From the sequence record PZ544694.1: 56,700 nt of DNA; one strand, 5' to 3'. A program made the position numbers and the translations under genes. Below the pieces are notes generated by a model, which worked only from the letters and a program-made list of their open reading frames with translations, was not told the origin of the DNA and made no database searches. The DNA is from a phage. Below are positions 1 through 56,700 of this stretch, piece by piece (position 1 is the first letter of the stretch; every line of letters starts with the position of its first letter).

Positions 1-276
1 ATGAGCCGTCCATGCGATGAAACTCTCGCAGTATTAAAACAGCGATATGTTGAAGCGAGCCGAGCATATCACGATTTACAAATCGGGGTGTCTGGCCGAG
101 TGTTTGTCGACCAAAATAGCGAACGTGTTGAATTCACCGCAGCTAACCGTCAGAGTCTACTTGCGTATCTTACCGGGCTACAACGTCAGATTTGTCAGTT
201 AGCCCCGAACGACCCGATCTGTAATTGCGGTGTCGGCTTCGGGTCAATTTCCGCACCACTAGGGGCGTTATTCTAA
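1..276 (+). CDS. head-tail joining protein, lambda gpW-like
   Basis: 91 aa; segment HDLQIGVSGRVFVDQNSERVEFTAANRQSL aligns with lambda gpW ([29 protein letters not shown]); next to portal and terminase ORFs. Confidence 0.6.
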   Translation: MSRPCDETLAVLKQRYVEASRAYHDLQIGVSGRVFVDQNSERVEFTAANRQSLLAYLTGLQRQICQLAPNDPICNCGVGFGSISAPLGALF

Positions 277-1401
277 ATGAAATCAATCAAGGAACTTGTC
301 GCGAGAAGTGCGAACAATCCCCCGGAGGTTAAAGCACAAGGCGGTTATGAGGGTGCTCAGCGAAACTCGCGAGAAATGTATCGCTGGACGCCCGCAATAG
401 TCTCTCCGGATCAGGAATTAGACGGCGGACAAAAAGAATTAGCCGATGCCCGGGTTCAAAACGTTATCCAGAATGACGGTTTTGCGTCCGGTGCCGTATC
501 GATACATCGAGATAATATCGTCGGCTCTCAATACATGCTAAACGCTAAGCCGAATTTGTCCGCGCTAGGACTAAAAGGAGCTGACGCCGAAGCATGGGAG
601 GAGGAGTTTCAAGACGTCGTAGAGTCGAAATTCAACGTGGCTGCGGACTCAACGGAAAACTGGTTTGATGTCACACGACGCAATTCTTTTACCGGCTTGG
701 TTCGCCTCGCGGTGGCCCAAGCACTGATTTCCGGTGAAGTATTGGCATCGGCAGAATGGTCAAGAACCGCAGGTCGTCCTTTCAATACGGCCATTCAAAT
801 GATTAGCCCGCATCGACTGAGCAACCCGAATAACTCGGCCAACACGAAAAACATTCGAGGCGGTGTTCATGTCGATGCGTTCGGACGACCAATCGGGTAC
901 TACATTCAAAACAGTTTCCCGGGAGAGAGTTTAATCAACGGTGAGAATCAAATGTGGCGATATGTTCCATCACGCAAACCGTGGGGACGTCGACAGGTTA
1001 TTCACATCATGGAGCAAATTCTCCCGCACCAAAATCGCGGTATCTCAGACATGGTTGCAGCATTGAAGACCATTAGAATGACTAAGAACTTTCAGGAGAT
1101 AACGCTACAAAACGCGGTAATCAATGCCTCGTATGCAGCCGCAATTGAGTCGGAGCTACCACCGGAAGCCGTTTACGCTCAGTTAGGTTTAGGGCAACGT
1201 CCGTTCGGCGAGATTATCCATGAGATGATGACGAACGCAGCATCGTACTACGCGACTGCTAAAAACATGGAAATAGACGGCGCCAAGATCCCGCATTTAA
1301 TGCCCGGCACTAAGTTGAACTTAAAACCGATGGGGACTCCCGGCGGGATCGGCACGGACTTTGAGGAGTCGTTACTACGCCACATCGCAGCATCGTTATA
1401 A
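277..1401 (+). CDS. portal protein, lambda gpB family (N-terminal ~70 percent only)
   Basis: 374 aa colinear with lambda gpB: SIHRDNIVGS, MISPHRLSNPNN, INASYAAAIESEL, AKIPHLMPG, FEESLLRHIAASL; ends with TAA where homologs continue. Confidence 0.85.
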   Translation: MKSIKELVARSANNPPEVKAQGGYEGAQRNSREMYRWTPAIVSPDQELDGGQKELADARVQNVIQNDGFASGAVSIHRDNIVGSQYMLNAKPNLSALGLKGADAEAWEEEFQDVVESKFNVAADSTENWFDVTRRNSFTGLVRLAVAQALISGEVLASAEWSRTAGRPFNTAIQMISPHRLSNPNNSANTKNIRGGVHVDAFGRPIGYYIQNSFPGESLINGENQMWRYVPSRKPWGRRQVIHIMEQILPHQNRGISDMVAALKTIRMTKNFQEITLQNAVINASYAAAIESELPPEAVYAQLGLGQRPFGEIIHEMMTNAASYYATAKNMEIDGAKIPHLMPGTKLNLKPMGTPGGIGTDFEESLLRHIAASL

Positions 1402-3468
1402 ATGGCTAAATACAAAAATCTCTTTGAGATCGCGGTCAAGATGTCGGATAACTTACGACCCCCGGAAAGGTTGACCGTTTCTAATGCAGCATCTCAATAT
1501 CGATATGTAAATTCTCCCGGGTCGTATGTAGGCCCGTGGTTGAATACAACAACGCCGTATATGGTCGAACCAATGGACGTATTAACTTCGCGCAATCACA
1601 GCAAGATGGCGTTTGTAGGCCCGGCACAGTCAGGTAAAACCGACGCGATTATCATTAATGGCGTGTCATACTCAATCAAAGTCTCACCGATGGATACAAT
1701 GGTATTCTGTCCGACAATGGCAGCCGCCCGAGACTTTTCTATGCGACGTATTGATCGTCTTCACCGACACAGCCCGCTAATCGGCGAGCAATTGTTGAAA
1801 GGTAGAGACACCGACAATAAATTCGATAAACAATACATTACAGGTATGATGTTAACTATCACATACCCTACCGTGACCGAATTGGCCGGACGACCGGTTC
1901 CAAGAATATTGATGACCGACTTTGACCGTATGGACGACGATATCGGCGGTGATGGTAATCCATTTGACTTGGCAACACAGCGTACAACAACCTTTGGTTC
2001 GTTTGCTATGACTATGGCCGAATCGTCCCCGTCGAGAGAGATTCTTGACCCGCACTGGATAGCTAAGTCACCGCATGAGGCTCCGCCGTGTACCGGTATT
2101 ATTGCGCTTTACAACCGTGGGGATAGACGACGTTGGCAATGGCCGTGTCCTCACTGTGACGAATATTTCGAGGGTAAATTCGAGCATCTAACGTGGGACA
2201 ACGGAAAACAGCTATCTAACCGAGAGAAAGCAGAAACCGTACAAATGGTATGCCCGGAATGTGGTTGTTTGATCCACCCCGACGAACGCTTTGAAATGAA
2301 TTTATTCGGAGTGTGGGTTCCGGAGGGTTGTAAAGTTGATAAGAGCGGGAGACTTACGGGCAAAGCCCCTCATACCGACTTCATTTCTTACTGGCTCCGC
2401 GGTACGGCAGCCGCCTTTACGACATGGCAAAAACTGGTAAACATCTACCTCGATGCCCTTGACGAATATCAACGGACGTACTCAGAAGAAGCCTTGAAGA
2501 AATTCTGGAATAACAACATGGGTGAGCCGTATCAGCCTAAGTCGTTAGAATCAGTCCGCGCACCGGAAGCACTGAAAAGCCGGTCATCAGATTACCCGCT
2601 AGGCATGGTTCCGAATGACGTTCGATTCCTCGTAGCAACGATAGACGTTCAATTGAATAGCTTCGTAGTACAGGTGTTCGGTATTTCCCCGGGTTCACCG
2701 TATGACACTCATGTTATAGACCGGTTCTTCATCAACAAGTCGGAGCGTAAGGACGAAGACGGCGACGCAATGATCTTACAGCCGGCGACATACGAAGAAG
2801 ACTGGAAACTTATCGAAAAACAGGTAATAGATAAAGAGTATCCGTTGTCAGACGGTAGCGGTAGAATGATGTCAATTAAGATGACCGGTTGTGACTCCGG
2901 GGGTAAATCTGGCGTAACCGGCATGGCATACGCGTTCTATCGATATTTGAAGACAAAGAATAAACATGCTCGCTTCATCTTATTGAAAGGTGGCACACGA
3001 GTAACAGACCCGAGAACCCGTATTAGCTATCCGGACTCTAACCGGAAAAACGATAAGAATGCAGCTAGAGGAGAAATCCCGGTATTATTCTTAAACTCGA
3101 ACTTGTTGAAAGACGCATTAAACGGACGACTAGATTGTATTGAGCCTCACAAGGGCTATTATAATATGACTAGGGAATTACCGGACGAATTTTTCTCGGA
3201 GCTATGCGCCGAAACGAGAACCGCGAAAGGTTGGGAGAATTTAGCGCAAGCCCGAAACGAAGCATGGGACTTAAGCTACTACTGTTTGGGCCTTTGTACG
3301 TCTCCGGAGTTATTACGAGTAGAGTCGATAAATTGGGACAACCCCCCAACGTGGGCGGAGGAATGGGATAATAATACGATGGTCAGGGAACCCGAGGAAG
3401 AAAAACCATTCGCCTTTCAACCTCGACCGATGTTAGACTTTAGCCGTTTAGGTGAACTATTAGGATAG
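1402..3468 (+). CDS. terminase large subunit (GpA family)
   Basis: 688 aa; Walker A-like GPAQSGKTD; CPHC/CPEC Cys pairs; FTTW, VATIDVQ, MTGCDSGG and NEAWDLSYY blocks colinear with lambda gpA. Confidence 0.85.
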   Translation: MAKYKNLFEIAVKMSDNLRPPERLTVSNAASQYRYVNSPGSYVGPWLNTTTPYMVEPMDVLTSRNHSKMAFVGPAQSGKTDAIIINGVSYSIKVSPMDTMVFCPTMAAARDFSMRRIDRLHRHSPLIGEQLLKGRDTDNKFDKQYITGMMLTITYPTVTELAGRPVPRILMTDFDRMDDDIGGDGNPFDLATQRTTTFGSFAMTMAESSPSREILDPHWIAKSPHEAPPCTGIIALYNRGDRRRWQWPCPHCDEYFEGKFEHLTWDNGKQLSNREKAETVQMVCPECGCLIHPDERFEMNLFGVWVPEGCKVDKSGRLTGKAPHTDFISYWLRGTAAAFTTWQKLVNIYLDALDEYQRTYSEEALKKFWNNNMGEPYQPKSLESVRAPEALKSRSSDYPLGMVPNDVRFLVATIDVQLNSFVVQVFGISPGSPYDTHVIDRFFINKSERKDEDGDAMILQPATYEEDWKLIEKQVIDKEYPLSDGSGRMMSIKMTGCDSGGKSGVTGMAYAFYRYLKTKNKHARFILLKGGTRVTDPRTRISYPDSNRKNDKNAARGEIPVLFLNSNLLKDALNGRLDCIEPHKGYYNMTRELPDEFFSELCAETRTAKGWENLAQARNEAWDLSYYCLGLCTSPELLRVESINWDNPPTWAEEWDNNTMVREPEEEKPFAFQPRPMLDFSRLGELLG

Positions 3469-4053
3469 ATGGCAAAGGCACCGGTAACAACAAGACGTCG
3501 TAGCAATCAGCTAGACCGTGAATCCGAGTCGATGATCTTCGACGGGGTTAACATTACTCAGATCGCAAAGATATTTAACATGGAGCGTAGAGACGTTACG
3601 CCCAAGATCCGAGAAGTTCCTCCTTGCGGGGAACGAGGCGGGTATCCGATTTACAAATTAAATGAAGTGGCGCCATACCTAGTAAAGCCCCTGTATGATG
3701 TCGAAACCTACATTAAGCGAATGCACCCCAACGAGCTTCCTAAAATGCTCTCTAAAGAGTTCTGGAACGGAATGAAAGCTAAGCAGGACTACGAGTTGAG
3801 AGAGGGTGAGCTATGGCCTACCGACCAAGTAGAAGCGCTAATGTCGGAGTCTTTTAAACACTTACGCATGTCATTACTCTTAGTAACGGACTCACTGGAA
3901 CGTGAATCCACCCTCACCGATCATCAAAGAACCCGCATCACGGAAATGATAGACGGCGCGCTAAATGAGATGGCGCAAACACTCGTTGAGGCATTCGGAG
4001 ACCGGGCTAAGACGGAAGTCAAAGAGAGTACCGTAGGTGGCAAGAATGGCTAA
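3469..4053 (+). CDS. terminase small subunit (Nu1-like, HTH DNA-binding)
   Basis: 194 aa; N-terminal HTH-like IFDGVNITQIAKIFNMERRDV; C-terminal region resembles lambda Nu1; last 8 nt (ATGGCTAA) identical to first 8 nt of the terminase large ORF. Confidence 0.55.
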   Translation: MAKAPVTTRRRSNQLDRESESMIFDGVNITQIAKIFNMERRDVTPKIREVPPCGERGGYPIYKLNEVAPYLVKPLYDVETYIKRMHPNELPKMLSKEFWNGMKAKQDYELREGELWPTDQVEALMSESFKHLRMSLLLVTDSLERESTLTDHQRTRITEMIDGALNEMAQTLVEAFGDRAKTEVKESTVGGKNG

Positions 4054-5577
4054 ATGCGAAAGAAATTCTCGAAACGTACGGTTGGGAAGACTAAAGTTAA
4101 CCTACTTGAAGAAATCAGGAAAGGTAGAAAACTTGTTGAAAGACAACGGGAAGACTTACACGAGTATCAAGTTGAAGCCCGACAACTGGCGCATGACATT
4201 CCATTCTGCGGATTATTCCTCGAAATGGGTATAGGCAAAACCGTAATAACCGGAACGCTGATCGCCGACTTACTTGATAACTTTGAAGTAGATAGAGTTC
4301 TCATTATAGGCCCTCGTAGGGTGGCTAAAGTAACATGGCCGGACGAATTCATGGAGTGGGGTCATCTATGTGGGTATAAAGTAACGCCGGCAGTCGGAAC
4401 ACCCAAGGAAAGACTAGCGGTACTAAATAGCAATAGTCCTATCGTATCCATAAACCGAGAGAATGTAAGCTGGCTAGTAAACTATTACAAAGGCAAGTGG
4501 CCGTTCGATATGGTGGTCATAGACGAGTCGAGTTCCTTTAAGTCTCACAAATCTAAGCGGTTTAAGGACTTAACTAAAGTCAGACCGAGGATAAAACGAC
4601 TAATCGAGTTGACGGCCACCCCAAATGGCGAGGGATTTACTTCGTTCTTTTCTCAAATATATTTACTTGATTACGGTAAACGGTTCGGCCGTAGCTTCAA
4701 TAAGTTTAGGGATAAATACTTCGAGTACAACCCGTATAACCACAGCATCAAGCCGAGAGAAGATACGGAGATGCGTATCTTAGAAAAGATAAAAGATATA
4801 TGCGTAGTTATGCGAGCAGAAGACTATCTCGATCGAGTACCGTATGAGCCAAAGGTGATCCCGGTAAAACTCAATAAGAAGATCACCAAGGAGTATTTCG
4901 ACTTCCAAAAGAATTTAGTCATGATGATACCCGAAGCGGAAAACGTCATAGTGGAAGCGCAATCGGCAGCGATACTCGCATTGAAACTGCTACAAATGTG
5001 CTCCGGCGTTATTTACAACACGTACTATGACGGGATAGATGAGAACGAGGAGCCGATAAGGAAGACCGACATCTATGATATCCACGAGGAGAAACTAGAC
5101 GCGCTCGAAGTGTTTCTGGAAGAAGCAAAGGAAGCCGGAAAGAATGTTTTCCTTGGGTATCACTTTCGGTCATCACGAGAAAGAATATTAGCCCGATTCC
5201 CGGATATCGTCGAGATGGATAAAGACGGAAATAACATAAAACAATGGAACGCGGGGCGAATAAAAGTTTACATGGCACACCCTCAAAGTGCGGGGCACGG
5301 CTTGAATTTACAGCGGGGCGGACATACAATTCTTTTCTATGACATTCCGTATTCGTTCGAGAACTATGACCAATTTATCGGCCGGCTCGATAGGCAAGGT
5401 CAAAAGCACCGAGTAACAGTACACCACTTAGTTGCGGTCGGAACAAATGAAGATGGCCGAACAGTCCAACTAGCCGACCGCCACGTTTATAACAATCTGA
5501 GACGTAAGGAAGAAAACCAAGATTGGGCCTTGAAGACCTTACGTGATCTCAGAAAAGCGATGAAAAAGGAAGTTTAG
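4054..5577 (+). CDS. SNF2-family (DEAD/DEAH-like) helicase
   Basis: 507 aa; motifs GIGKT (I), VVIDESS (II), LTATP (III), QSAGHGLNLQ and QFIGRLDRQGQ (VI). Confidence 0.85.
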   Translation: MRKKFSKRTVGKTKVNLLEEIRKGRKLVERQREDLHEYQVEARQLAHDIPFCGLFLEMGIGKTVITGTLIADLLDNFEVDRVLIIGPRRVAKVTWPDEFMEWGHLCGYKVTPAVGTPKERLAVLNSNSPIVSINRENVSWLVNYYKGKWPFDMVVIDESSSFKSHKSKRFKDLTKVRPRIKRLIELTATPNGEGFTSFFSQIYLLDYGKRFGRSFNKFRDKYFEYNPYNHSIKPREDTEMRILEKIKDICVVMRAEDYLDRVPYEPKVIPVKLNKKITKEYFDFQKNLVMMIPEAENVIVEAQSAAILALKLLQMCSGVIYNTYYDGIDENEEPIRKTDIYDIHEEKLDALEVFLEEAKEAGKNVFLGYHFRSSRERILARFPDIVEMDKDGNNIKQWNAGRIKVYMAHPQSAGHGLNLQRGGHTILFYDIPYSFENYDQFIGRLDRQGQKHRVTVHHLVAVGTNEDGRTVQLADRHVYNNLRRKEENQDWALKTLRDLRKAMKKEV

Positions 5578-5865
5578 ATGACTGTTAGAGAGAGCAAAGT
5601 CGAATCGGATATCCGAAAATACGCTTTGGCCCGAGGCTGGTGGGTTTCTAAATTTACTAGCCCCGGTAAACGAGGCGTACCAGACCGGATATTCATTAAA
5701 AACAGTTTTGTAGTTTTTATCGAAATCAAACGCCCCGGAGAGAAGCCGTCGAAGCAACAAGAATTACGCATGGCCGAGATGAAGCGCTACGGGGCTTTAG
5801 TATATTGGGTGGATAATTTAAACGATGCGAAAGAAATTCTCGAAACGTACGGTTGGGAAGACTAA
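5578..5865 (+). CDS. VRR-NUC domain nuclease (PD-(D/E)xK fold)
   Basis: 95 aa; GVPDRIFI ... VFIEIKRPGEKPSKQQ pattern typical of VRR-NUC; last 41 nt identical to first 41 nt of the SNF2 ORF. Confidence 0.6.
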   Translation: MTVRESKVESDIRKYALARGWWVSKFTSPGKRGVPDRIFIKNSFVVFIEIKRPGEKPSKQQELRMAEMKRYGALVYWVDNLNDAKEILETYGWED

Positions 5866-13614: not shown

Positions 13615-14030
13615 ATGCACGTTTGGTCAAAAAATGAGCGTACAAAATTTATACAGAAAAACGTTCAATATTTAACCGATTTTCGGGTGATCGGATTTTT
13701 TGAGTGAGTGAATTTCCAATTTTTCATTTTTCCATTTTTTGGTCGAAAAACACCGAAAATGCTGTACAAATTTTATACAGGGTTTTTTGACACAAAGTGT
13801 GTCGGTCATGTGTTCCGACGTGTGCGTGCCAGTTAAATGTTGTACAAAAATCACCCAACACACATGATCGAATTACCTTTATATAGCTTATATATATATT
13901 TTTCTATTTTTCCTTTCCTATCTATTTTTTCTTTCTTCTGGAATTTCTATTTTATTATCTATTACTGTGTTTGCTGTGTCAGAAAGAAAGTAATATAGTT
14001 GCTGTGTCAGAAAGAAAGTAATATAGTAAA
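13615..14030. promoter_or_regulatory. AT-rich repeat-containing region, candidate origin or regulatory region
   Basis: Three copies of AATG-nn-GTACAAA-type motif at 13633-13656, 13757-13780, 13834-13853; T-tracts; 28-bp tandem repeat at 13972-14027; only very short ORFs. Confidence 0.35.
13972..14027. repeat. perfect 28-bp tandem direct repeat x2 (TGCTGTGTCAGAAAGAAAGTAATATAGT)
   Basis: Read directly: copy 1 at 13972-13999, copy 2 at 14000-14027. Confidence 0.9.
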
Positions 14031-14333
14031 AACAATAACTTACCTTGGAACACCTATTGGAACATCAGCCGGCACAGCAATTTCCTGTGACACACCACCA
14101 GCCATGGTAATACCTAAAACGGCGCATAACTATTTGATATTATTACGGAATTACCTAAAATACCGGTCATTACGGTAAATGATGTCCCCTATTGCTAAAG
14201 CCTGTGCGTCGCTCTCCGTGCTTTCTAGAGAAGAATCACTTTTAAATCGAAAAAGGTACTTGGACGAGTTGTCCGGTTGGGCGGGGGTGCGCAGAGCCGT
14301 CTTCCAGAAATTTGTCCGGGATCTGCCATAGAT

Positions 14334-14624
14334 GTTTGGGTGTTCGGGTGGGCGGTGTTGTGGGTTAGATGTGCTTCAAATTGTAAGCGTGTGCGATTGT
14401 GCGAGGCGATCGCGGTGTTAGTTGTCGGTCGTATCCGTTGAGCGGGGGTATAGCGCCTCGGGTGAACACGCCGATCGGGAACGTCGTTTTTACGTTTTGT
14501 GCGGGTGTTCGGGTGTGCGGTTGTACCGCATGACGTTTTTACAAATATAAATGCGGTCGCGCCAGCGCCTACCCACCCAACACCACCACCCCAAGCCCTC
14601 ACTCTCCCCCATTCCCCCCCACCC
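14334..14624. repeat. G-rich imperfect direct repeats followed by a C-rich tract
   Basis: GGGTGTTCGGGTG-type motif at 14334-14366 and 14494-14528; C-rich tract about 14566-14624 (CCCACCCAACACCACCACCCC...). Confidence 0.6.
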
Positions 14625-14766
14625 TATGGAAAATTGCCGTAAAGCCATGTGTTGCGTCCTCAGCGTGTTTTGCCCGCTAGGTAAGGCCGATGTATTACCT
14701 ACGATGAGTTATGCCCGTGTGGTTCGATTGAGGGCGGAAGACGGCGCTTTGTTTGTTCCGACTTAA

Positions 14767-17511: not shown

Positions 17512-18153
17512 ATGAGACGCGTTGATCCTAAAGACTGTTTAGACATAATCCTAAACTACCATTATGCGAAACGTCGACCTAGCATATCTTACGCTTTCGG
17601 GTTCTTCGAAGACGAGGAGCTTGTCGGGGTTCTAACTATCGGTAAGCCGGCCAGCAACCCGCTATGTGTTGGAATATTGGGCGAGGAGTACAAAAGCCAC
17701 GTTTTTGAGTTAAACCGACTTTGTTTTATTCGTCCAATCCGTAACGCTCCGTCGCAGTTGATCGCCTTCGCTATGGCTGAGTTGAAAAGTGAAAACCTTG
17801 TCATCGTGTCGTATGCGGATCGCGGTATGAACCACAACGGATATATTTATCAAGCGTCTAATTTCATCTACACGGGGGCGACGAAAGCGCGCACCGATAA
17901 ATACACGGAGCAAGGTAAACACTCTCGGCATTATCAAGGAAAGGAAAGCAAGACGTATCGACAAGTCAGAACATCTAAGCATCGTTACGTTTATTTTACG
18001 GGGAGCCGTTCGGTCGTGAAGAAGTATAAAAAGTTGCTTCGATATCCGGTATTGCCTTATCCCAAGGAAGAAAATAAAAATTATGTGCTCGGATCCGAGT
18101 ACAAGCAAGAACTCGTTAAGATTAAAGGGGGAGAAAATGAAGCCGGTAAATAA
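17512..18153 (+). CDS. putative Mom-like DNA modification protein
   Basis: 213 aa; HYAKRRP, LVGVLTIGKPASNP, VIVSYADRGMNHNGYIYQASNFIYTG, KHRYVYF, PVLPYPKE recalled as characteristic of Mom-family proteins; recalled from memory, not searched. Confidence 0.4.
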   Translation: MRRVDPKDCLDIILNYHYAKRRPSISYAFGFFEDEELVGVLTIGKPASNPLCVGILGEEYKSHVFELNRLCFIRPIRNAPSQLIAFAMAELKSENLVIVSYADRGMNHNGYIYQASNFIYTGATKARTDKYTEQGKHSRHYQGKESKTYRQVRTSKHRYVYFTGSRSVVKKYKKLLRYPVLPYPKEENKNYVLGSEYKQELVKIKGGENEAGK

Positions 18154-31107: not shown

Positions 31108-31422
31108 ATGGCGGGTAGAGATGGAGGTACGGGAGGCGTTCGCATTGACTTGGCGATCAATATCCCGACTATCCTTTCGCTAATAGCAGCGTTGTGTAGC
31201 GGTATAATGTGGGTTAATAACCAGTTTAGCAATGTTAGAAACGATGTTTTGTTGGTCACGGCTGACGTTAGAGTCCTAGAACAACGAACAACGCAAGCCG
31301 AGCGGGAAATCGCCGATATAAAACATAATACCGCACAACAAATAAACCAGTTTCGAGGTGAAGTTCGCGAAGACCTTAGAGACATTAAAACTAGCGTTCA
31401 AAAACTCGCAGATAAAAAATAG
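31108..31422 (+). CDS. membrane protein with N-terminal TM and coiled coil (i-spanin-like candidate)
   Basis: 104 aa; TM INIPTILSLIAALCSGIMWV then heptad-like charged helix. Confidence 0.3.
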   Translation: MAGRDGGTGGVRIDLAINIPTILSLIAALCSGIMWVNNQFSNVRNDVLLVTADVRVLEQRTTQAEREIADIKHNTAQQINQFRGEVREDLRDIKTSVQKLADKK

Positions 31423-38646: not shown

Positions 38647-41600
38647 ATGGGGCTACACATGGGGATCGGCCGTGGCCCTATTGATGAATTGATGGAAATC
38701 GAGGTCGGCGGAAGAACCGCTTGGCGTGGTTCCGTTAAAGAGTCCTCGTTCTTTCGGATACGGGCTGAAAATCTTTTCGGGGGTAAGAAAGCGGAGGGAG
38801 GCATTGAGGGTGGTTTCGAACTCTACATGGGCGATAAGGATCAGGTCGTTAGCGACAAACTTAAATCCATGTTGGGCGGTGGGAGCCAACCGGAGTTTCG
38901 CGGAGTAGCTACCGGCTATTTCGATGGTTTAGTGTCGGCCATGAACCCATACCCGAAAGCGTGGCGATTTAAAATACGTCGCATCTTAAAAGGTTGGGAC
39001 GGTGGGGTGTGGTATCCGGAAAAAGCGGTCATAGAACTTACCGGCCACGATGACGAGGGGAAAGAGTATCCCATCAAGGCGATGAACCCGGCTCACGTTA
39101 TTTACGAGTGTATGACAAACCGAGATTGGGGCCGAGGTATCTCTCGTGACCTACTGTTTGACTCGGAGTTCCGAAAGGTGGCCGATACGTTGTTCGAGGA
39201 GGGGTTCGGGATCTGTATTGCGTGGAGACGCCAAGACACCCTAGAGTCTTTTATCCAGAATATACTTAACCACATTTCAGGCGTGTTATACGTCGATAAG
39301 TTTACCGGTACTTTCAAACTCAAGTTACTTCGTAATGACTACGATGCGGATAACTTGCCGGTGTACGGTTTTGAGAGCGGGTTACTACAAATCGAGGAAG
39401 CGACTAACGGCGCAATCCATGGTCTGATGAATGAGTGTGTCGTTAAATGGTTCAACCCGATCGTCGGTAAAGAGAGTCAAGTTCGAGCACAGAACCTAGC
39501 CCTGATTCAGACTTCCGGCGCCATCAAAAGCGACACATTCACGTATGAGGGGGTGCCAACCGCAAAACTGGCCACTATCATAGCAGAAAGAGACTTACGT
39601 GTTGCGTCTACTAACGTCCGCCGGTTCACCCTAGTTTGTGACCGTCGAGCATGGCGAGTACAACCGGGAGACGTTTTGAAGATTTCCGACCCAAAGACAC
39701 GCGGACTTGAGAGCGTAATCGTTCGTGTAGCGGACACAGAGGAGAGTAAACAATCCGATGGTCAGATACGATTATCTTGCGTACAAGACACGTTCTCGTT
39801 CGACCTGAACACGTTTACTGGTGTTCAAGACCCGTCTTTCCCTAAACCGAACCTAAACCCGGTTCCGGCCAGACGTTTAGTTTATGAGGCGACATACGCA
39901 GAATTGTCGTCCCTATTCCCACTAGGAGAGTTTGAGGCCATCAAGCCGTCTTTCGGGTATTTGCGGGCACAGGCGGAAAAAGGCTCACCGGTAACGATGG
40001 CGTTCGAGATGCACGTCCAAAACCCGACCACTGGAAAGTATGAGAAAACAGGTGCGGGGGATTTCACTGCGCTATTCGAATTACCGGTTGACCTTGGATA
40101 TTTAGACCGCTATATCCGAATGAAAGATCCGGTAGATGAAGACTTGATTGAAGTCGGGGACGTTTTTTACGTCAACCAAGAAATAATCATGATCCAGTCT
40201 ATCGAGGAAGACGGGTTAGTCGAAATACGTCGAGGCGTGTACGACACCGTACCTCACCAACACCCCGCTGGCTCCGTAGTGTGGGATATGGTTCAAGGTG
40301 GCGGGCTTGACCTGACAACCCGACAAGCGGGAGAAACCTTATCGGTGAAGATACTCCCATGGACGCTATCGGGTGGGGTTCTCGACGAGTCTAACGTGTC
40401 CGAAGATGAACTGACTTTCAATTACCGATTCTACCGCCCATACGCTCCGGGTAAAGTAGAACTCACCTCAGTGGAAAGCACGGAACCGAACCCTTGGTTT
40501 AATGGCCATGTTTTACGAGCGGACGTCGGAGAGGCCGAAGTGCCTGACGCCTTGACGATAACGTGGGCGCACCGAGATAGACCGATGCAACAAGACAAGC
40601 CTATTTATCATGAGCAAGATAGTATCGGGCCGGAGCCGGGAACGACATACCGAATTAGTATCCTAAACGCTAAGGGTGAAGTAATCCGCAGAGAAAACGG
40701 GATTACCGGCACACAGTTTGTCTACACTTACGGCCAAGCGAGCCTAGATTTGAACGTGGAAGCGTCAGCCATAGATCCGGTTGCTGGGTACTTGAGATTA
40801 GAGTCTATGCGCGACGGGTTCGAATCGTGGCAAAACTACTTAATACCGATCACCGTTTTCAAGAAACCGCCTCAAATGGCGTATGTTAGTTTCTTAAACC
40901 AATCTGTCGCTCAGGTGTCCGATAAAATCGACCCCGAAGATAAAGACGGAGAGACGGCCGTAGACGCAAAAGCCATGGTTAGTTTTGTCAACCAATCCGT
41001 AGCACAGGAGAGCGAAGATCTATCTTCCGGTGGCGGGGGCCTACCTGATGGCGTGAATGTTAGCTATGTGCGACAACCGGTTTCGCAACAAGGCAAATTA
41101 GTTCCTATCGTAGATAGCCAACTGTTTGAGTTCCCTTACTTAATGTTGCTACGCCATGGGTTCGAACCGTCCGCCTCACAATTCTTCGCTACGGTAGCTA
41201 GACCGTCAGACCGTGTAACCGACGGGTACGATTTGTTCGAGAAAGAGAAGAACGATACAGAGTACGTGAACCAAGGGGCGCAACCGTGGACGCCGTGGGG
41301 GATTCTGTCTAAGGCAATCTCATATCTGGATAATGAGATAATCCTCGATGCTACGTCGGATTCTGACGGGGTTCCTACTGAGGACGCGATGCCGGGCGAC
41401 GTGATTTTCGTCGGAGCCGAAGCGATGGTGATCCGGGGCATCGATGGTAAACGTATTACGGTTGGCCGTGGTTGTGTTGATACAATCCCCGCACTTCATG
41501 GGAAAGGTCAAGTTGTGTGGTTTGTCGACAAACAAATAGCTTCCGGGCAACGTAAATATCACGACGGCCAGACTTGCGTAGTTGCCGTAAGGCCTCATTC

Positions 41601-50418: not shown

Positions 50419-51606
50419 ATGGCACAACCATGTACAAGCAGCAACGACCAGAATTACGTCGTAGGGCGTGGTCGACTATTCTTCGACAAGTTCGTCGACG
50501 GTTGTAACAACTCCGAGCATGGCGAAATGTATTTCGGTAATACCCCGGAGTTATCACTATCTTCTGACACAGAAACGTTAGACCATTATTCGTCTGATTA
50601 TGGTATGCGTGAAAAAGACCTAACCGTGATGCTAGAGCATTCTCGTTCTGGTTCATTCACAACCGACCATATCTCCGCGGACAACCTAGCGTTGTTCTTC
50701 CTAGGGGACAAAACGCATGTTACTCAGACTCAGGTGACAGGCAACAAAGAAGTATTCGAAAACGTGGCATTAGGTCGTCACTACCAACTCGGCACAACGG
50801 ATATCCTACCGATGGGCGTTCGTAACATCGAGAATCTGTTAGTTTACGTGGCGGACGGTGATACAACCATCAACCTAGGCGATGGCGATGTGTCAACTAT
50901 CGACGGTGTAACTAAAGTAAATTTTGCCGGCCAGATCGACTACGACCTAGAGTTAGGACGTATCTATATCGAACCTACCGCTACTGAAATTAAAAACGGT
51001 CAGCAGTTAGTAGTCCAGTATGACATCGAGGCGCAGGCTCGCGAAATCATCATTGCCCGTAACCGCATGATCTACGGCTCACTGCGATTCTTGTCAGCTA
51101 ACCCGGTAGGTAGCGCGAAAGATTTCTACTGGCCCAAAGTCATGTTACAACCTGACGGAGACTATGCACTTAAAGGTGACGACTGGCAACAAATTGGGTT
51201 TACCTTTAGCGTTCTTCGCAAAAACCGCAAAGTGGAGCAGGTTTACATCGAGTCAGCGATGGCAAGAGCATCTACGCCCCCAAAGCCTGATCCGGAGCCG
51301 GAATACCGTCTAACTCTTAGCGTTACTCCGACCTCCGGTACTGAGGGTGATACTTTAGTAGCTAAGGTAAAAGCTACGAAAGACGGCGCTCCGAGAAAAA
51401 CAAAAGTGGTCTTTGCCTTTAGCTCCGACGAGGTGGAACTGGCCGATAGTCACCCTGACGGTGTAGAGACAGACGGGGTTACGGGAGAGGCCACTGTGAA
51501 TCTTACGGTAGGCCCCGTGTCCGGTTCCGCGACAAAAGTTACGATAACAGTAACCGATAGCGACGGAGGAAGTGCGACGGAGGAAGTTACCGTCAACCCA
51601 AAGTAA
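50419..51606 (+). CDS. major tail protein with C-terminal Ig-like domain
   Basis: 395 aa; C-terminal ~100 aa beta-rich Ig-like (TLSVTPTSGTEGDTLVAKVKAT...VTITVTDSDGG); position as in lambda gpV. Confidence 0.5.
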   Translation: MAQPCTSSNDQNYVVGRGRLFFDKFVDGCNNSEHGEMYFGNTPELSLSSDTETLDHYSSDYGMREKDLTVMLEHSRSGSFTTDHISADNLALFFLGDKTHVTQTQVTGNKEVFENVALGRHYQLGTTDILPMGVRNIENLLVYVADGDTTINLGDGDVSTIDGVTKVNFAGQIDYDLELGRIYIEPTATEIKNGQQLVVQYDIEAQAREIIIARNRMIYGSLRFLSANPVGSAKDFYWPKVMLQPDGDYALKGDDWQQIGFTFSVLRKNRKVEQVYIESAMARASTPPKPDPEPEYRLTLSVTPTSGTEGDTLVAKVKATKDGAPRKTKVVFAFSSDEVELADSHPDGVETDGVTGEATVNLTVGPVSGSATKVTITVTDSDGGSATEEVTVNPK

Positions 51607-54903: not shown

Positions 54904-56181
54904 ATGACGCAAGGCACTTATCAAGCTGCTGCCGTACAAGCGGTACAAGCTATTAATCTACGCCCGGCGTTTCTGGACGAACGTTCAGTCGGTTCTATGG
55001 GGAGTAACTTACAGTTGCTAGCTAACGTAGAGGCCGACATGACTGACGAAACTTGGTCAACAATGCTAAACAACGTGTGTATGACGTATGGGGTGTCTAA
55101 CAGCGCACCAACTAACAAACCATACGGATTCTCTAACGGAACCGCTTTCATTCCGGTACACGGCTCTCTAATTAACCGCTTCGGCGGTTCTTGGGGATTC
55201 GTTACAGGATATAGCTATATTCGTAGAGCACACGCAATGGCCTTGAATGATCCGGACGTCGAGAGAATCGTCTATGACGTTAATTCGGGTGGAGGCGAGG
55301 CAGCCGGTTGTATGGAACTATCGGACGAGATTTTCAGTCGTCGCGGTGAAAAACCTACACTGGCCGTCATCAACTCAAGTTGCTATTCTGCTGCTTACGC
55401 GATCGCAAGTGCGTGTGACGCGATAAGTATCACGCCCTCGGGTGGCGCGGGTTCAATTGGGGCGTTGATTATTCACGCTGATATGTCTAAAATGTTGTCT
55501 GACGTAGGAATTAAAGTATCTGTGATACGCGCCGGCGACAGAAAGGCAGAAACCAACCCTTTCGAGGAACTTAGCGATCAAGCGAGAGCAGAGCTACAAT
55601 CAGGCGTCAACGCTTGTAGAAAAACGTTTGTAGCAACCGTAGCAAGAAATCGCGGTTTGTCGGAAAAGCTAGTATTCGACACCGAAGCGAAAACATACGA
55701 CGCGAATGATGCTAAAGACTTAGGTCTAGTTGACCGCGTTGAATCGCCAGAAATGGCATTACACAACTTCATTAACGGAACAGAGAGCGAAACTGATATG
55801 GCCGTAAAAAACACAAACGCGGAGCAACCGACAATCAATGCGTCCGAAGAACAAGCTAAAGGTGCGAAAGCAGAACAAGCGCGTATCAAGGGCATTCTTG
55901 GTTGTGATGAAGCAAAAGGGCGCGAATCGTTAGCACAACACATCGCGTTCAACACCTCAATGAGCGAAGAAGATGCTAAGGCAATGCTTAACGCTTCTCC
56001 GGTTGAGAAAGCGGAAGAACCAAAGCAAGAAGAAAAGCCGAACGCTTTTAAGAAAGCAATGGACGAAGGCGAACAGCCGGGCATCAAAGCCGAGCCACAG
56101 GACACGGATAAGCCCTTAGCAACGGACGAGAATAACTCGTTATTAGACGACCTTTCAGGTCTTGGCTATTTCGGTAACTAA
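54904..56181 (+). CDS. head maturation protease (S49 / SppA-like, lambda gpC-like) with scaffold-like C-terminal region
   Basis: 425 aa; S49 core GFVTGYSYIRRAH...VINSSCYSAAYAIASACD...GSIGALIIH; C-terminal ~110 aa Ala/Glu/Lys-rich, Nu3-like. Confidence 0.8.
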   Translation: MTQGTYQAAAVQAVQAINLRPAFLDERSVGSMGSNLQLLANVEADMTDETWSTMLNNVCMTYGVSNSAPTNKPYGFSNGTAFIPVHGSLINRFGGSWGFVTGYSYIRRAHAMALNDPDVERIVYDVNSGGGEAAGCMELSDEIFSRRGEKPTLAVINSSCYSAAYAIASACDAISITPSGGAGSIGALIIHADMSKMLSDVGIKVSVIRAGDRKAETNPFEELSDQARAELQSGVNACRKTFVATVARNRGLSEKLVFDTEAKTYDANDAKDLGLVDRVESPEMALHNFINGTESETDMAVKNTNAEQPTINASEEQAKGAKAEQARIKGILGCDEAKGRESLAQHIAFNTSMSEEDAKAMLNASPVEKAEEPKQEEKPNAFKKAMDEGEQPGIKAEPQDTDKPLATDENNSLLDDLSGLGYFGN

Positions 56182-56700
56182 ATGAACCTTTCATACGAAC
56201 AGTTTAGCCGAGACTACACGAAGACTAACTATTCTTCCGCGAGAGCCTCAATGGGGGAAACATGGAAATTCATGCAGTCTCGCAAAAAGATCATTGCTGA
56301 TGCTTTCGCTACAAACATTTATGCGTTGTGGTTAGAGGAGATGATAAACAAAAACGAAATCCCGTTGCCACGAGGAAAAACGAGCGACTGGTTTTACGAA
56401 CCGTTAGTGAAAGACTGTTTAATTCGTTGCGACTGGATAGGTGCAGCCCGCGGTCAAATCGACGAGAAGAAAGAGACCGAAGCAGCTATCATGAGAATTA
56501 ACAGTGGTCTGAGCACTCGTGAGAAAGAAATCGCTCGACTCGGCGAAGACTGGAGAGAGATTTTTAGGCAGTTAGAACGAGAAAAACGAATAAAAGATAA
56601 ATACGGGCTTGTTTTCTCCGGAGATGTGAGTAATATATCCGCTAACGAGAAAACAAACTCGGAAGATGACGAAGAAACTAACAGTGGGGATTCGGAATGA
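56182..56700 (+). CDS. portal protein, lambda gpB family (C-terminal ~30 percent only)
   Basis: 172 aa; NLSYEQFSRDY...YSSARAS...WLEEMI...CDWIGAARGQID...INSGLSTREKE colinear with the lambda gpB C-terminal third; continues ORF 277-1401 with no residues missing; ends with TGA at the last window base. Confidence 0.8.
   Translation: MNLSYEQFSRDYTKTNYSSARASMGETWKFMQSRKKIIADAFATNIYALWLEEMINKNEIPLPRGKTSDWFYEPLVKDCLIRCDWIGAARGQIDEKKETEAAIMRINSGLSTREKEIARLGEDWREIFRQLEREKRIKDKYGLVFSGDVSNISANEKTNSEDDEETNSGDSE

Follow-up and report, generated by a model that had tools for sequence, protein, structure and literature searches.

The window, i.e. the whole stretch of 56,700 nucleotides analyzed here, carries portal gene sequences towards both of its ends. 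ORF 277–1401 on the plus strand encodes 374 amino acids with the C-terminus ...LLRHIAASL, which is followed by a TAA stop codon. ORF 56182–56700, likewise on the plus strand, encodes 172 amino acids and starts with MNLSYEQFSRDY. When compared with the Pfam profile PF05136 (Phage_portal_2, lambda family; cut-off 32.9 bits), the N-terminal piece matched profile positions 2–320 of 354 with 232 bits, while the C-terminal piece matched positions 322–353 of 354 with 32.5 bits, which on its own is just below the cut-off. Together, both pieces span positions 2–353 of the 354 positions, and as the two ranges are complementary, the pieces fit inside a single domain of which no part is missing. Hence, ORF 277–1401 encodes the N-terminal and ORF 56182–56700 the C-terminal part of a single lambda-family portal. 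A preliminary description of this DNA had assigned the portal to these two ORFs and had stated that nothing of the protein is missing, and both statements agree with these data. It had also reported a TAA-ATG at the break. Indeed, both codons are present in the window, but they do not adjoin: immediately behind the TAA, at position 1402, stands the native ATG start codon of the terminase large subunit, whereas the ATG of the C-terminal piece is located at 56182–56184.

Further head genes border the portal pieces, all in plus orientation. The window opens with the gene of a gpW-like head-tail joining protein (1–276; PF02831 gpW, E = 6.9e-9), an assignment that is also given by the annotation of the source record described below. 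The terminase large subunit of the lambda GpA type (TerL; 1402–3468; PF05876 and PF20454) follows the N-terminal portal piece, and an S49 prohead protease (54904–56181; PF01343) precedes the C-terminal one. In addition, a 63-amino acid ORF is present on the minus strand at 1248–1439; it crosses the junction 1401/1402, which is artificial (see below), and therefore cannot exist in the real genome.

Translation showed that in frame 1 of the plus strand all 56,700 bases of the window divide into 85 segments with zero spacing, each of which opens with ATG, GTG or TTG and closes with a stop codon. Such head-to-tail packing of ORFs without any spacing is unlike natural phage DNA, and the window is synthetic. 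Its source was found by megablast against a phage collection, in which the window ends matched record MN604053.1 with 99.9–100% identity. This record represents Escherichia phage E21 (RefSeq copy NC_052983.1; Casjensviridae, Lavrentievavirus) and is circular with a length of 58,536 bp. The window start corresponds to record positions 1–3483 and the window end to 56747–58536, in both cases on the minus strand. Each of the 85 segments was then looked up in the whole record, and 83 proved to be exact substrings from start to stop codon. On the record, 56 of the segments lie on the minus strand and 29 on the plus strand; the two inexact segments are precisely the portal pieces.

The base tally adds up without remainder: 56,694 bases stem from the record and 6 were added, giving 56,700. 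The bases of the record that are missing from the window (2,123) are all intergenic, and 281 bases are present twice, resulting from overlapping neighboring calls that were each copied in full. These duplicated overlaps create artificial short direct repeats that flank segment junctions, the largest measuring 41 and 38 nt. Duplicated stretches are found at window 5537–5618 (record 5545–5585) and correspond further to record positions 31288–31325, 14212–14239, 51458–51476 and 18104–18120. The segments are arranged in ascending record coordinates with a single exception, namely gpW (record 1128–1403), which is placed ahead of the N-terminal portal piece (record 1–1122). No sorting key that would account for this placement was found among low or high coordinate, 5’ end, 3’ end and midpoint. 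In the minus-strand blocks, to which 56 calls belong in all, the genes of the window stand in the opposite order to that in which they are transcribed.

The calls differ from the GenBank annotation in number, as the window holds 85 calls versus 64 annotated CDS in the record, and they also differ in length: TerL comprises 688 versus 675 and the SNF2 helicase 507 versus 450 amino acids. Calls unlike those in GenBank are located in window regions 1402–3468, 4054–5577 and 13615–14766, and many calls of 29–71 amino acids, down to 90 nt in length and several of which start with TTG or GTG, have no counterpart in the GenBank annotation. The minimum segment length of 90 nt, the use of TTG starts and the 85 calls versus 64 annotated CDS lead us to suspect that an over-calling, PHANOTATE-like gene finder is behind the calls in the window.

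Next, we consider how the two portal segments relate to the record. The N-terminal 374 codons of the portal gene (277–1398) are an exact substring of the minus strand from 1122 to 1, and segment 277–1401 fits record positions 1–1122 only when its final TAA is omitted. Likewise, the C-terminal 171 codons with the native TGA (56185–56700) are an exact substring of the minus strand from 58536 to 58021, and segment 56182–56700 fits record positions 58021–58536 only without its initial ATG. Both the TAA at 1399–1401 and the ATG at 56182–56184 are missing from MN604053.1; each of these foreign codons caps a call that is truncated at the record edge. To the base, the break is where the circular record closes, at position 1/58536. 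The six bases must have been introduced by some person or process, and the window, when read as a circle, carries gpW out of order between the two pieces, both of which would also be compatible with a split that was deliberately engineered or planted independently of the record origin, e.g. as a designed split-gene construct. However, the break falls exactly at position 1/58536 of the public record, and modification is confined to the two segments that run off the record ends. As automatic capping of partial calls covers both facts without intent, we regard a deliberate split as very improbable.

At the record origin itself, the sequence is continuous. The minus strand ends at position 1 with ...GCA TCG TTA (A S L) and opens at 58536 with AAC CTT TCA TAC (N L S Y; AACCTTTCATAC). 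Across the origin, the record thus reads ...GCATCGTTA|AACCTTTCA..., with TTA|AAC in frame, and the joined ends 58536/1 would read ...GCATCGTTAAACCTTTCA... The ORF that crosses the origin is one unbroken frame of 545 codons, which is identical to the N- and C-terminal pieces joined. Its start may be located two codons upstream of window position 277 (ATGAGCATG, MSMKS...; record 1122–1128), where it would overlap the stop codon of gpW as TAATG; the call in the window uses the second ATG, and with the upstream ATG as start the gene would have 547 codons. Judged from the window alone, in which both pieces possess start and stop codons, one could also envisage a natural two-piece portal, i.e. a genome that encodes two ORFs separated by a stop and a restart and whose products assemble into one ring. 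This reading is at odds with the source record, from which TAA and ATG are missing, so that MN604053.1 does not contain the stop and restart codons of a naturally split gene, and which reads through the origin in frame. Moreover, the separation of the pieces by ~55 kb arises only from linearization of the record.

Further evidence came from related genomes. A 240-nt probe centered on the break matched 28 related records. In 25 of these, it matched as a single piece with at least 99% coverage and 95–100% identity, usually under a feature annotated as portal protein. The three exceptions are the two E21 records and PV596763.1, all of which have their origins at exactly the break position. In other words, the junction is uninterrupted in 25 of the 25 relatives whose origin lies elsewhere, and a break at the same site does not recur among them. 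In phage RP6, the two portal matches adjoin at 41489 and 41488, and only one portal protein, B, is listed in the corresponding paper (PMC10194311). With a continuous source record and 25 intact relatives, the natural two-piece portal is refuted, and its residual probability is negligible. A scan of IMG/VR for the junction with 0–6 inserted bases (CGCAGCATCGTTA N{0,6} AACCTYTCATACGAAC) returned no matching stretches and thus provides no evidence either way. Several records matching at the portal junction carry unexpected host names: Staphylococcus phage SVV09-A (PV593182.1), Enterococcus phage AS-M1_NWU (OR506460.1) and Salmonella phages SD-11 to SD-14 are 97–99.6% identical to Proteus Lavrentievavirus phages at this site. 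These host labels look doubtful, in particular the Gram-positive ones.

Closure points of circular records are common sites of assembly errors, and GenBank and RefSeq annotate only a portal fragment of 149 amino acids for E21. Both observations could indicate that an assembly or sequencing error has lost or duplicated bases where the E21 record closes and thereby breaks the gene. However, the minus strand over the origin is colinear with Proteus phage PM87, without gap or duplication and in frame, and the truncated annotation is accounted for by linear treatment of the record. An error of this kind, which had been listed among the candidate explanations in the preliminary description, is thus extremely improbable. 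The circular closure of the E21 record was taken as deposited, its backing being the colinearity with relatives. Finally, the ends of E21 could be physical, representing termini of packaged DNA or a genuine discontinuity of the portal gene, with E21 and the Egyptian ‘Pseudomonas phage E21’ expressing the portal in two parts. No observation speaks in favor of this possibility, whose probability we consider close to nil.

Reading of the record also restores the gene order of the head module. On the coding strand, which is the minus strand of the record, the order is TerS-TerL-gpW-portal-S49 protease-decorator-major capsid, and the same holds true for PM87. Thus, gpW (record 1403–1128) lies directly upstream of the portal gene, TerL (record 3482–1416, of which window segment 1402–3468 is an exact substring) is located upstream of gpW, and the S49 protease gene (record 58024–56747) directly follows the portal gene, whose stop codon it overlaps by 4 nt. 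The portal gene therefore occupies the position within the head-assembly module that is expected for a lambda-family portal. The order portal-C, gpW, portal-N, which results from reading the window as a circle, is a product of the construction of the window; the previous proposal that only the gpW-like ORF separates the portal halves upon circular closure does not apply to the real genome.

Taken together, the split portal is almost certainly an artefact of the window, reflecting one ordinary, continuous portal gene that was cut at the record origin and whose pieces were capped with codons. Directly observed are which record served as the source, that this record lacks the six bases, and that the gene is continuous across the origin as well as in relatives. 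Two of the explanations offered beforehand turned out to be correct in combination: a record origin divides a wrap-around gene, as the break is position 1/58536 of MN604053.1, and the split is artefactual, as TAA and ATG are missing from this record. Contiguity of the pieces in the source had been proposed as a check, with a continuous portal ORF pointing to a construction artefact, and exactly this was found: the record is continuous over the origin and lacks the TAA-ATG.

The window represents an artificial concatenation of gene calls from a linearized record of E21, a member of the genus Lavrentievavirus. According to this model, the arbitrary origin of the circular record was placed inside the minus-strand portal gene, and treating the record as linear would have yielded two edge-truncated portal calls, one at each end. 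All calls were oriented in the sense direction and strung together in one reading frame, and at this stage TAA was presumably appended to the portal piece without a stop codon, whereas the other piece, which had no start codon, received ATG. As for the software, we infer that a PHANOTATE-like gene finder made the calls and that partial genes were capped automatically. The relative order of gpW and the N-terminal portal piece speaks against this model, as it is unexplained by a simple rule of concatenation. The portal itself is biologically ordinary, being a standard lambda-family portal (PF05136) within a standard head module, and judged by its sequence, it presumably forms a normal dodecameric ring at one vertex of the capsid. 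Findings on the window that rest on adjacency, order, strand, intergenic signals, repeats at boundaries or minus-strand ORFs should be rechecked against MN604053.1.

The public annotation of E21 is affected by the same origin. GenBank and RefSeq list as portal only the 149-amino acid C-terminal fragment (58021..58470; QGF21957.1 / YP_009998168.1), and record positions 1..1127, which encode the N-terminal ~1.1 kb of the portal gene, are without annotation. The 149-amino acid annotation is explained by annotators having treated the record as linear, and the truncation is a curation error due to the record origin. Rotation of the record, or a portal CDS annotated as a join that spans the origin, could remedy it. 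In PV596763.1, both ends are annotated as misc_features ‘similar to portal protein’. This linear record of 58,554 bp, designated ‘Pseudomonas phage E21’ and originating from Egypt, is ~97.5% identical to window positions 1–3468 and shares exactly the origin of E21 inside the portal gene. The common arbitrary origin together with the common name suggests that Escherichia phage E21 served as the reference for orienting or assembling PV596763.1. The paper on Pseudomonas phage E21 contains no statement on the portal, on termini or on reference-guided assembly, and a literature search for a description of Escherichia phage E21 retrieved only the unrelated phage vB_EcoP_E212.

Comparison with known portals places the break within a continuous protein. 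Alignment of both pieces to lambda-family portals, which had been suggested earlier as a check, was carried out with the joined protein and detected homology to two experimentally solved portals. The match to 8vhx chain D (‘Portal’) had an E-value of 1e-208 and covered query residues 20–543 in one stretch through the break. A literature search for ‘8VHX’ found nothing, and for this entry the PDB molecule name alone is therefore given here. Portal protein B of phage lambda (gpB; 8k38) matched with E = 4e-95 over query residues 20–515. In the latter alignment, FEQSLLRYIAAGLGVSYEQLSRNY of gpB is paired with feesllrhiaaslnlsyeqfsrdy, and LLRHIAASLNLSYEQFSRDY is placed against LLRYIAAGLGVSYEQLSRNY, without a gap at the break in either case; the initial claim that the pieces, once joined without the stop and the Met, align gap-free to gpB is thereby borne out. 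Unlike the 8vhx portal, gpB is moderately diverged, its identity to the joined portal being far lower.

The closest comparison is provided by Lavrentievavirus phages, among them Proteus phage PM87 (ATW69872.1, MG030346.1), whose portal is identical to that of E21 over 545 residues except for I358V. Its junction DNA is colinear base for base and in the same register (GCATCGTTAAACCTCTCATAC), and there, too, gpW is located upstream and the S49 protease downstream of the portal gene. In contrast to E21, the record origin of PM87 is located elsewhere, leaving the gene intact, and a single portal of 547 amino acids is annotated from the ATG two codons upstream (MSMKS...). In a wider context, the E21 portal resembles other origin-spanning genes in circular GenBank records in being cut by an arbitrary record start, with only a fragment annotated by the depositor in MN604053.1 and two misc_features in PV596763.1. 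What sets the present case apart from origin-spanning genes in general is that the window adds a stop and a start codon, and hence the fragments look like complete ORFs.
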